From a virus (lineage: Duplodnaviria; Caudoviricetes), in IMG/VR virus record IMGVR_UViG_3300032239_001501, positions 64,001 through 128,000 of that record: a stretch of DNA of 64,000 nucleotides. The stretch is one strand, 5' to 3'. Of this stretch, positions 55,143-63,405 are shown one piece after another. Both the position numbers and the translations under genes were made by a program. The notes beneath the pieces were generated by a model, which saw only the letters and a list, made by a program, of their open reading frames with translations, made no database searches and was not told where the DNA came from. Each line of letters begins with the position of its first letter. The first letter of the stretch is position 1.

Positions 55143-55550
55143 GGGGGTGACAGGCTTTGATTTCAGGTATCAAGGATAAGTTGCAAGTAGTCGGATATCA
55201 TCTACGACTTTAATTATTGGTGGTAAACATAACAGACGCAACTTTTGCGAAAATGGCTACTCTTGGTTTAACTAGAGAAGCTGTTGTTGTTGGTGCTTAA
55301 TCTCACAGAACAACTACGGGGTTTCCCATACGTACCTTGGAACAGAAATGGTCAAGGTGTAATACCACCCGAAGATGTATTAAGAGTCTCGTTCAGGAGT
55401 CTACTCTAACACAAGTGAATCCGACACAGTTATTGGTTACGATGTCAAAATAGGAACCATTTATTTGTTTGTTATGAATAACAGAATAAACTTGTAGTAA
55501 CGTATTGTTGAACCGGAAAGACCCGGTTTCAATTACCGGCACCTCCACCA
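55143..55550 (+). ncRNA. ssrA: tmRNA (transfer-messenger RNA)
   Basis: Acceptor stem GGGGGTG/CACCTCC-A-CCA with G3:U70 Ala determinant; T-arm CCGGT-TTCAATT-ACCGG; pk1-like AGTCG/CGACT; tag frame 55235-55300 after ATAACA. Confidence 0.93.
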
Positions 55551-62085: not shown

Positions 62086-62679
62086 ATGGCAAAATGTGAT
62101 AGACATATTTGGGATACACAAGATAAAGAATGGTGTTGGAAATGTGATGAACTTACTGATAAAGAACGTATGCAAAATACAAAAAAAATTAAAGTAATAT
62201 TTTTAGATATAGACGGTGTATTGGCGACTAATAAAGAGTATTCAACAAACAGAACCAAATTTAGAGAAAAATATTCTTGGGCTAAAGAGTTGAGAGTTCC
62301 TTATGGGTGGAATAAAGGTTGTGTTGAAGTCTTTAATGAGATATTAGACGCAACAAATGCTGATATTGTAATTAGTTCAGATTGGAGATTTCATTGGGAT
62401 TTAGATGAGTTAGATAAAATATTTAAAGCAAATGGAGTTAAAAAATCACCAATATTTGGTACTATTAAGAATAAAAGAAAAATGAGTTCTGATTTAGAGG
62501 ATGATAGAGTTTACCAAATTAGTGAATGGGTTAAGTTTAATAAACCTGAAAAATGGGTGGCAATTGATGATATGAATTTGAATAGTTTGGGTCCTAATTT
62601 TTTTAGAACAAAAGATTCTGAAGGTTTAAAACAAACAGGATTAAAAAATAAAATCATAAACACATTAAATGATGTCTAA
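62086..62679 (+). CDS. HAD-family phosphatase (Swiss-Army-Knife RNA-repair HAD-like)
   Basis: IFLDIDGVL, IVISSDWR, WVAIDD. Confidence 0.8.
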   Translation: MAKCDRHIWDTQDKEWCWKCDELTDKERMQNTKKIKVIFLDIDGVLATNKEYSTNRTKFREKYSWAKELRVPYGWNKGCVEVFNEILDATNADIVISSDWRFHWDLDELDKIFKANGVKKSPIFGTIKNKRKMSSDLEDDRVYQISEWVKFNKPEKWVAIDDMNLNSLGPNFFRTKDSEGLKQTGLKNKIINTLNDV

Positions 62680-62863
62680 CATAAAAATATGTGATATAGT
62701 TAAAAATAGATACTCAGGAGTTGCTCCTGAAGGATTTGTTTTACTTCTTGATAAAACAATTGAAGATTTACAAGATTTTGAAATTTGGAAAGAATGGAAA
62801 AATAAAATTATTGAATTAGATTTAAAAAACAGAGTTGAAATGGAAGAAAATAAAAAATCTTAA
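62669..62863 (+). CDS. Small hypothetical protein
   Basis: 64-aa ORF; LQDFEIWKEWKN. Confidence 0.5.
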   Translation: MMSNIKICDIVKNRYSGVAPEGFVLLLDKTIEDLQDFEIWKEWKNKIIELDLKNRVEMEENKKS

Positions 62864-62872
62864 GTTTCAAAA

Positions 62873-62951
62873 TGGTCAAACTGGTGGTAATCGCCTGCAG
62901 CGGTGAAAGGAAGTGCACTCCGAGGTATAACATCCCGCCAGTCCCTGACCA
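62873..62951 (+). ncRNA. Unclassified structured RNA candidate
   Basis: 44/79 GC in AT-rich context; closing stems TGGTCA/TGACCA and ACTGGTGG/CCGCCAGT enclose three small hairpins. Confidence 0.55.
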
Positions 62952-62982
62952 CATAATTCAAATTTTAAGATAATTATTCAAT

Positions 62983-63357
62983 ATGAGTTATAAAGTATTC
63001 ACCAAAAAACCCGTTAAGAGGCATTTAATAAAAACAATAAGTTATAGTATTATTACCATATGTATTGGATTATTTTCAATGTGGTACATTACAGGTAATA
63101 TAATAATAGGTATTTCATTTGGTTTTGCAGAAATAATATTAAAACCTATAATATATTATTTTCATGAAAAAATATGGTATAATTGGTTTAAATTTGGATT
63201 AATTGAAGAAAAAATTCATAAAGTAAAAAAAGTTCAATTAAATGAAGTTGAAACTAAAGTAATAAACGAAATTCAATTAGAAACATTTACTAAAAAACCG
63301 ACAAATTTAGTTCAACCCACAGGAAAAAAAGTATTGAATTATTCATCAAATAGATAA
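62983..63357 (+). CDS. DUF2061-like membrane protein
   Basis: RHLIKTISY...ITGN...G....E...K...YYFHEKIW. Confidence 0.75.
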   Translation: MSYKVFTKKPVKRHLIKTISYSIITICIGLFSMWYITGNIIIGISFGFAEIILKPIIYYFHEKIWYNWFKFGLIEEKIHKVKKVQLNEVETKVINEIQLETFTKKPTNLVQPTGKKVLNYSSNR

Positions 63358-63380
63358 ACCGAGGAAACTCGGTTTTTTTT
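63356..63380 (+). terminator. Rho-independent terminator
   Basis: AAACCGAG-GAAA-CTCGGTTT followed by a T-tract. Confidence 0.88.
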
Positions 63381-63405
63381 ATTTTAATTTAAGATATTTA
63401 TTAAC

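Follow-up and report, generated by a model that had tools for sequence, protein, structure and literature searches.

A conserved four-way-junction RNA with self-complementary hairpin loops in a lineage of uncultured jumbo phages

A short intergenic island rich in guanine and cytosine (GC) within an AT-rich phage genome raises the question whether it encodes an RNA and, if so, whether this RNA serves the gene behind it or acts on its own. The island, in the following called the element, occupies positions 62873-62951 on the + strand of a 64,000-nucleotide (nt) stretch of DNA, the window, which comprises positions 64,001 to 128,000 of the IMG/VR virus record IMGVR_UViG_3300032239_001501. An earlier note on this DNA had described a 79-nt element with 44 G+C that folds into a four-way junction upstream of a DUF2061 gene; our recount agreed with this composition, and all stems and loops listed there were found in their places. 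The GC content peaked at 0.54 at the element (sliding frame of 80 nt) compared to ~0.2-0.3 in the local surroundings and 0.296 for the whole window. Comparative analysis gave good support for a new family of structured RNAs in one lineage of jumbo phages. The locus is best read as a gene-like module for a structured RNA of ~75-85 nt, which is present once per genome and holds a fixed syntenic place between the phage transfer-messenger RNA (tmRNA) and transfer RNA (tRNA) islands of uncultured, AT-rich, mostly freshwater jumbo phages.

Taken alone, the sequence of the element gave a suggestive, but not a compelling result, since its fold (-27.3 kcal/mol) was only modestly better than that of shuffled sequences (z = -1.9; 9 of 200); the opposite strand folded no better than the + strand. 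Homologues were collected via three routes, namely exact and degenerate DNA patterns run against IMG/VR and JGI metagenomes, contigs encoding DUF2061 homologues, and a covariance model (R1), which together yielded 59 distinct variants from over 100 contigs. All family loci are viral or metagenomic jumbo-phage contigs, and the labelled source samples are mostly freshwater. A search for related loci with the DUF2061 protein alone gave nothing. A pattern scan of 185,579 prokaryote species, each represented by one genome, returned 49 matches, the best of which reached 16 bits with R1; these bacterial and archaeal hits are therefore regarded as chance matches, and no credible prokaryote member was obtained. 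The source record itself measures 165.5 kilobases (kb) at ~55% completeness and thus belongs to a jumbo phage. Comparison of the locus with GenBank phages by blastn yielded no match, and tblastn with p494, a protein encoded upstream of the element, detected PA5oct-like jumbo phages of Pseudomonas at only ~24% identity; no cultured relative is therefore known. The element occurred once per genome, both in the record to which the window belongs and in five further records, one of which (317 kb) is rated 100% complete. The mean column identity of the RNA was 80% (alignment A1, 46 sequences), and distant members, whose flanking proteins are down to 30-50% identity, still scored at least 79 bits against R1. 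Evidently, the RNA is far better conserved than the neighbouring proteins.

The fold consists of a closing helix P1, an asymmetric internal loop, a second helix P2 and a four-way junction with the hairpins P3, P4 and P5 (Table 1). It was evaluated on two alignments, A1 being obtained with MAFFT and A2 being fitted to the covariance model (59 sequences). In both of them 97.1% of the cells were paired, whereas sliding the partners by 1-3 columns as a control lowered this share to 30-46% (A1) and 29-47% (A2). Changes on both sides were found for 11 pairs in A1 and for 15 of the 26 pairs in A2, and the observed covariation score was matched by 0 of 500 shuffles in either case. Furthermore, RNAalifold independently recovered P1-P4 from the plain MAFFT alignment. 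These results are decisive for a conserved folded RNA far beyond chance, and the four-way junction on a closing helix, as originally proposed, is supported by the comparative data with abundant compensatory changes. For P1 such changes comprise GUGAACA/UGUUCAC (L185) and GAUCA/UGAUC (L192), for P2 ACUGGUG/CGCCAGU, GUUGGU/ACCAAC, ACAAGU/ACUUGU and ACUAAU/AUUAGU. Two helices had to be adjusted. P2, given in the earlier note as ACTGGTGG (62880-87) and CCGCCAGT (62935-42), was located there, but has 7 base pairs (bp) here, with G62887 left unpaired in the invariant GUA. Similarly, a P5 hairpin exists, but not in the register GAGGT-ATA-ACATC (62922-34): homologues support GG...CC (62924-25 with 62934-35), with a compensatory AG...CU in L002 and L034 and a 5-bp stem in L190. 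The AG...CU exchange together with the parse of each sequence favours a unified model, in which P2 comprises 6-7 bp and P5 closes directly onto it.

All wobble pairs are G-U on the + strand and would be A-C mismatches on the other one, e.g. U-G at A2 columns 25-31 in 50 sequences and G-U at columns 40-52 in 20 sequences. The RNA thus corresponds to the transcript of the + strand and has the orientation of the genes around it; the strand preference first read from the window alone holds across A1 and A2. Besides the helices, two non-helical covariations were observed: position 4 of junction J3/4 tracks position 1 of J4/5 in a non-canonical manner (A2 columns 39/53; A with G, C with U), and the P2 pair adjoining the CNC bulge co-varies with the middle base of this bulge (columns 73/76). 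Both may represent tertiary contacts or only clade structure.

With respect to function, the loops of P3 and P4 are the most informative parts. Two scans whose patterns left the P3 loop free returned CUGCA throughout the family, at 8 of 8 loci in the one and at the 21 family loci among 22 matches in the other; the 22nd match (L198) was discarded as a chance match in GC-rich DNA. The closing pair of this loop (62894-62900) is U-G, C-G or broken, G62900 never changing and facing U, C, G or A. As G62900 is constant whatever its partner, the effective P3 loop is one free base followed by the palindrome CUGCAG. P4 has the same format, i.e. a GGA/UCY stem, a free A and then G-NNNN-C. Its centre is UGCA in 23, CUAG in 22, UCGA in 13 and UCGG in one of the 59 variants; all of these are self-complementary, the last one only via G-U. 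The columns 45-48 and 46-47 are complementary in 59/59, and among all column pairs 46-47 ranks first in mutual information (1.55 bits). These middle bases are adjacent and are therefore unable to pair within one chain. On a tree built without the P4 loop columns, the loop state changed at least six times.

The earlier note had suggested that the two loops kiss each other via TGCA/TGCA. Their self-complementarity is real, but an intramolecular P3-P4 kiss had to be rejected: it is not conserved, since the P4 centre becomes CUAG or UCGA and cannot pair with the constant CUGCA of P3. A second co-varying copy of the P4 hexamer was not found within +/-6 kb. With no P3-P4 kiss and no hexamer partner nearby, the P4 loop would most simply pair with its counterpart on a second RNA copy, and the covariation thus suggests intermolecular pairing. 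A switch from one palindrome to another at adjacent loop bases is also the argument of Kretsch et al. (2025; PMC12286853) for the symmetric kissing loops that cryo-electron microscopy showed in OLE and GOLLD. The same type of covariation, which keeps the loop self-complementary through changes of adjacent bases, characterizes P4.

Palindromes could also be of use to the DNA itself, and a palindromic protein-binding or recombination site would be in line with the three 6-bp palindromes (CTGCAG, GTGCAC and, in relatives, GAATTC and similar) of the GC island. However, dozens of G-U pairs would turn into A-C on the other strand, all P4 stems (59/59) contain an asymmetric bulged A, and P1 and P2 show compensatory changes over a long range; the UCGG variant pairs only through wobble, which points to RNA and not to DNA. 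The DNA-level reading is consequently disfavoured, and we regard it as hardly probable at all. Restriction-site avoidance was considered separately and dropped: CTGCAG is over-represented in the window (15 vs 3.2 expected from shuffles) and GTGCAC is at expectation (2 vs 3.1), giving no useful signal. The excess of CTGCAG may reflect codon usage.

We give an even chance to the explanation that the element encodes a small trans-acting RNA of a stable-RNA and RNA-repair region, which self-associates via the palindromic loop of P4 and perhaps that of P3. The RNA would be co-transcribed with the small open reading frame (ORF) upstream and would be released by processing in the clade where it abuts a tRNA-Gly at tRNA-like spacing or, alternatively, would have its own end made of P1 plus a U-tract in other clades. 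It would then act in trans and not as a switch for DUF2061. P4 and probably also P3 would each present a 7-nt loop, consisting of one free base and a 6-nt palindrome, through which two or more RNA copies may join by symmetric kissing contacts. The working form would be a homodimer or a small homo-oligomer, and which RNAs can join would depend on the variable P4 palindrome. A further-reaching version, which is tentative and clearly the less probable of the two, takes the ~80-nt cloverleaf with its invariant CUGCAG and lineage-variable GNNNNC loops to form symmetric dimers or closed rings, with P4 serving as a lineage address among co-infecting jumbo phages and with the RNA acting in trans on the encoded tRNA, tmRNA or RNA-repair machinery. 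If true, it would be the smallest natural self-assembling RNA so far seen in a virus.

Several points weigh against self-association and action in trans. The discrete RNA, its ends and its dimer are predictions from sequence. The hexamers would form self-duplexes of -6.3 to -8.2 kcal/mol, and cofolded dimers lie 12.6-15.5 kcal/mol below two monomers; yet any hairpin with a palindromic tip favours dimers, and the calculated energetics indicate plausibility only. The P3 loop never varies, which leaves its self-pairing without covariation support, and a constant loop might just as well engage in a protein or tertiary contact. Furthermore, template-switch ('quasipalindrome') mutation can create perfect palindromes with no selection for pairing. 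The family covers a narrow phylogenetic range, and since several of the search patterns fixed parts of the sequence, GGAAG and most of P1 are invariant partly as a consequence of the search. Finally, the clade of the window carries neither a terminator nor a processing site at the 3' end of the RNA, and the next gene starts 31 nt on in the window, which also fits a role in cis.

Loop-mediated RNA association and small phage RNAs are known from other viruses. The dimerization initiation site (DIS) of human immunodeficiency virus 1 (HIV-1) displays a 6-nt loop palindrome, GCGCGC or GUGCAC, flanked by an unpaired purine. P4 of the window likewise carries GUGCAC next to an unpaired purine, and palindromes that differ between lineages would restrict pairing to like-with-like; unlike the DIS, which belongs to a 9-kb genomic RNA and its packaging, the P4 hairpin is one arm of a small, independent fold in a double-stranded DNA phage. 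The packaging RNA (pRNA) of the phi29 family, a small phage RNA of 117-174 nt, forms a ring by intermolecular pairing of two different, mutually complementary loops; small podoviruses encode it at the end of their genome, and it binds the portal. pRNA and the element are similar neither in sequence nor in structure, and the window holds no evidence for a packaging role. Phage T4 produces the stable RNAs species 1 and 2 (rnaC, rnaD) of ~120-140 nt, which are co-transcribed with the T4 tRNA cluster and whose function is unknown; the element resembles them as a small phage RNA in a tRNA region, the T4 RNAs being larger and not known to be similar to it.

A close parallel is provided by ROOL, GOLLD and OLE, ornate phage or prophage RNAs that form RNA-only homo-oligomers and have no known function or protein partner; ROOL and GOLLD are phage-encoded and often near tRNA islands (PMC12286853). 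The element is phage-encoded as well, with tRNAs 6 nt to ~7 kb away, and the exchange of UGCA, CUAG, UCGA and UCGG in P4 is the same switching signature. In contrast, ROOL and GOLLD comprise ~500-800+ nt with many pseudoknots, whereas the element is a simple cloverleaf of ~80 nt that has no Rfam match to their families, and their multimers were observed, whereas oligomerization of the element is predicted from its sequence. That GOLLD and ROOL are homo-oligomers made of RNA only is a recent finding; both, however, are very large and difficult to work with. An ~80-nt RNA that self-associates via one or two loops would offer a minimal, synthetically makeable system to ask why phages make self-assembling RNAs, with each step testable by simple loop mutants. 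Independently of this, a large lineage of uncultured jumbo phages gains a well-supported RNA family, of which 59 variants and 15 covarying pairs were found.

Table 1 Parts of the element and neighbouring features (window positions unless stated otherwise; counts refer to the 59 variants).
Feature	Position	Strand	Remarks
P1 5' strand GGUCA	62874..62878	+	pairs with 62946-62950 in 59/59
P1 extra sixth pair	U62873 with A62951	+	possible
P1 as first read, TGGTCA/TGACCA	62873-78 / 62946-51	+	located as in the earlier note
Single bulged nucleotide A	62879..62879	+	U or C elsewhere in the family; opposite the CCC bulge (alignment A2)
P2 5' strand ACUGGUG	62880..62886	+	7 bp here, 6 bp in many relatives; 100% paired in 59; 6/7 pairs change on both sides
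Junction J2/3 GUA	62887..62889	+	invariant in 59/59 though the neighbouring helices covary
P3 hairpin AUCGC-CUGCA-GCGGU	62890..62904	+	3/5 pairs covary
Junction J3/4 GAAA	62905..62908	+	GAAC in other clades; G, A, A invariant
P4 hairpin GGA-A-G(UGCA)C-UCC	62909..62921	+	stem 100% paired, G-U in 20 sequences
P4 palindrome GUGCAC, 6 nt	62913-62918	+	
Junction J4/5 GA	62922..62923	+	A62923 invariant
P5 hairpin GG-UAUAACAU-CC	62924..62935	+	loop and length variable; 2-5 bp in 59/59
P2 3' strand CGCCAGU	62936..62942	+	pairs with P2 5' strand
3-nt bulge CCC	62943..62945	+	C/U-N-C in the family (alignment A2)
P1 3' strand UGACC	62946..62950	+	pairs with P1 5' strand
64-amino-acid (aa) ORF	62669..62863	+	stop 10 nt before P1; homologue upstream in nearly all loci with enough flank (tblastn)
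DUF2061 membrane-protein gene	62983..63357	+	Pfam PF09834, E 1.3e-12
Intrinsic terminator closing the unit after DUF2061	63356..63385	+	8-bp stem and T-run
tRNA island	L199 3360-6457, same genome, 3.4-6.5 kb beyond the window end	opposite	ARAGORN

The ends of the RNA were approached via its flanks. P1 is always preceded by a stop codon at a distance of 5-12 nt, from which we infer co-transcription with the preceding ORF; the scan for sigma-70 promoters remained at chance level. At the 3' side three situations were found. In 14 of the 59 variants P1 is extended to 7-8 bp and immediately followed by U4-U9, resembling the 3' end of an intrinsic terminator. The other 45, including the window, have no U-tract, and no intrinsic-terminator form is present at the element in the window. 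The absence of a U-tract reported in the earlier note is hence true for the window, but not for the whole family. In clade B a tRNA-Gly(UCC), which begins 6 nt after P1, would define the 3' side, the spacers between the tRNAs in the arrays of these phages being 3-6 nt. The clade of the window has neither feature, and its unit ends at the terminator behind DUF2061. Some clades additionally encode a micro-ORF of ~34 aa (L029 1600-1700, L015, L183-L197), which is absent from the clade of the window. It has a lysine-rich start, ends 5-9 nt before the extended P1 and carries the C-terminus D-E-S-W-E-x-F-[SG]-D-N-I-S-F-stop, in several clades W-x-x-F/H-G/S-D-N-I-x-F-stop; its product may serve as a leader peptide or act together with the RNA.

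These flanks could also mean that the element is a structured 3' end, i.e. a terminator or a processing or stability element of the upstream small-ORF transcript, where P1 plus the U-tract stops transcription or blocks 3' exonucleases. In the clades with the micro-ORF, a terminating ribosome could melt P1 and allow read-through into the downstream PspC gene (translation-coupled attenuation). The invariably close stop codon, the terminator-like variants, the conserved micro-ORF C-terminus directly upstream in several clades and the location inside an operon fit this explanation. It leaves the majority of variants, the window among them, without the U-tract it calls for. Moreover, one hairpin would suffice for such a purpose, so that the GUA and GAA junctions, the P3 loop, the covarying P4 loop and the presence of four helices are left unexplained, and in clade B a tRNA begins after only 6 nt. 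Altogether we consider a 3'-end element unlikely, though it is the alternative to be taken most seriously.

The genes around the element were compared in order to assess its reported link to DUF2061. The gap of 31 nt between the end of the element and the DUF2061 ATG (62983) had been given correctly, and the identity of the gene agrees with Pfam, but an association with it was not supported. In all loci the same gene order was found on one strand: p494, HAD_SAK_2, an ORF of 61-64 aa, the element, optional genes, DUF2061 and an M23 peptidase. The optional genes between the element and DUF2061 are a tRNA-Gly (in one clade), PspC (usually) and p128 (usually); the 34-aa micro-ORF, where it exists, lies between the 61-64 aa ORF and the element. 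The first gene after the element in 59 syntenic loci was mostly PspC, sometimes p128 or DUF2061 and, in clade B, the tRNA-Gly(UCC). DUF2061 is located 390-700 nt further downstream in the relatives. PspC and p128 are missing from the window (62864-62982 vs L008 1344-2011) and from its closest relatives L002, L043 and L116, and it is because of their loss that DUF2061 adjoins the element there. The gene association is thus corrected: the element belongs to a stable-RNA and RNA-repair region and not to DUF2061.

This variability bears on a cis-acting riboswitch or leader, which would sense a ligand or factor and control the genes of the small membrane proteins PspC and DUF2061. A compact multi-helix junction with invariant junction bases is typical of aptamers, the start codon follows at 9-31 nt in most loci (most often that of PspC), and P1 with the U-tract of some members could act as a ligand-stabilized terminator. 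The constant class of downstream gene by which riboswitches are recognized is lacking, however, as PspC, p128 (a HAD phosphatase), DUF2061 or, at 6 nt, tRNA-Gly may follow. Neither a competing helix nor an expression platform was visible on inspection of the spacer of 9-31 nt, which is rich in A and U. None of the known riboswitch models matches, and the palindromic, covarying loop would be without explanation. We therefore judge a riboswitch improbable, more so than a 3'-end element.

The surroundings of the element comprise stable RNAs and RNA-repair genes. HAD_SAK_2 (Pfam) and p128, which flank the element, are HAD phosphatases of RNA-repair type, p128 being a HAD protein with matches to polynucleotide-kinase families of PHROG. 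A phage tmRNA was detected at 55143-55550 (+), 7.3 kb upstream of the element (Rfam, 77 bits, E 3e-28). It was missed by ARAGORN, which did call tmRNAs in L016 and L034 with the tags AEEAPVVA and ...REAVVVAA. Five tRNAs (Trp, Asn, Cys, Glu, Thr) follow on the opposite strand 4.4-7.5 kb past the element (ARAGORN); with the tmRNA upstream and this tRNA island downstream, the element lies between the two.

A cloverleaf in such a place might be a tRNA-shaped decoy or substrate mimic, which is recognized by a host or phage enzyme for tRNA handling or RNA repair and does not self-associate. The four-way cloverleaf, the 6-7 bp P2 in the position of the acceptor helix, a U-A dinucleotide where tRNAs have positions 8-9, the tandem arrangement with tRNA-Gly at tRNA-like spacing, the flanking HAD phosphatases and the location between tmRNA and tRNA islands are compatible with mimicry. 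Unlike a tRNA, the element is overlooked by all tRNA detectors and has no D-loop or T-loop consensus, no 7-nt anticodon loop with U33 (the anticodon-like loop varies) and no free NCCA end, since P1 closes the 'acceptor'. Genes for a TROVE (Ro) protein or RtcB were absent from the 165-kb record, which is ~55% complete. A decoy without self-association thus appears quite improbable to us, beyond the doubts about a riboswitch. A genuine tRNA was ruled out on its own account: ARAGORN reported 0 genes in the window, the Rfam model RF00005 was silent on the element, the loops are CUGCA, the P4 palindrome and the variable P5, and the 3' end is paired in P1.

For comparison with catalogued RNAs the window was scanned with the 4227 models of Rfam 15, including riboswitches, ribozymes, signal recognition particle (SRP) RNA, 6S, Y RNA/YrlA, GOLLD, ROOL, freshwater and phage motifs. 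No match on the element was obtained, neither at the gathering score nor at E<=10; the tRNA, SRP, riboswitch and ribozyme models were silent, in line with the expectation that the element belongs to no known family. Seven homologous loci likewise showed no Rfam match on the element at E<=5, and the flanking tRNAs in these loci were detected with 64-67 bits. Y RNA/YrlA was rejected, as the P1 sequence is not fixed but exists, e.g., as GUGAACA/UGUUCAC or GAUCA/UGAUC, and as the ~55% complete record contains neither a Ro (TROVE) gene nor RtcB.

A self-cleaving ribozyme of an undescribed class would likewise be small, phage-borne and built around a multi-helix junction, and it would agree with the adjacent tRNA in one clade; some known ribozyme classes are found in such places. 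The known classes (hammerhead, twister, twister-sister, pistol, hatchet, HDV-like, hairpin) find no support, as none of the Rfam ribozyme models matches at E<=10. Inspection revealed no hammerhead, twister, hepatitis delta virus (HDV)-like or hatchet core, and the conserved unpaired bases are few, which makes a new class very improbable as well.

Two further candidates at the level of translation were dropped. A protein-coding micro-ORF could start at ATG 62872, whose TG opens the element, but this start exists only in the clade of the window; P2 and P5 contain indels of 1-4 nt that do not come in multiples of three, and the substitutions follow base pairs and not codons. Mimicry of a Shine-Dalgarno sequence by GAAAGGAAGUG was discarded because the match is lost in the clades with the GAAC-type junction.

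The 64-aa ORF upstream of the element was inspected as a possible RNA-binding partner and gave no lead in Pfam, PHROG or Atlas. Within this ORF a perfect 7-bp hairpin, TCAGGAG-TTG-CTCCTGA, was flagged as terminator-like at 62714-62730 (+); in the L002 version (TCAGGAG-TTG-CCCCTGA) one pair is broken. In clade C (L022 4540-4610 (-), L074, L098, L099, L100) a second conserved, hairpin-like structure was found in the 65 nt directly 5' of the element, with 24 predicted pairs, 5 of which show compensatory changes among the 5 sequences; the RNA of clade C may be a two-domain molecule.

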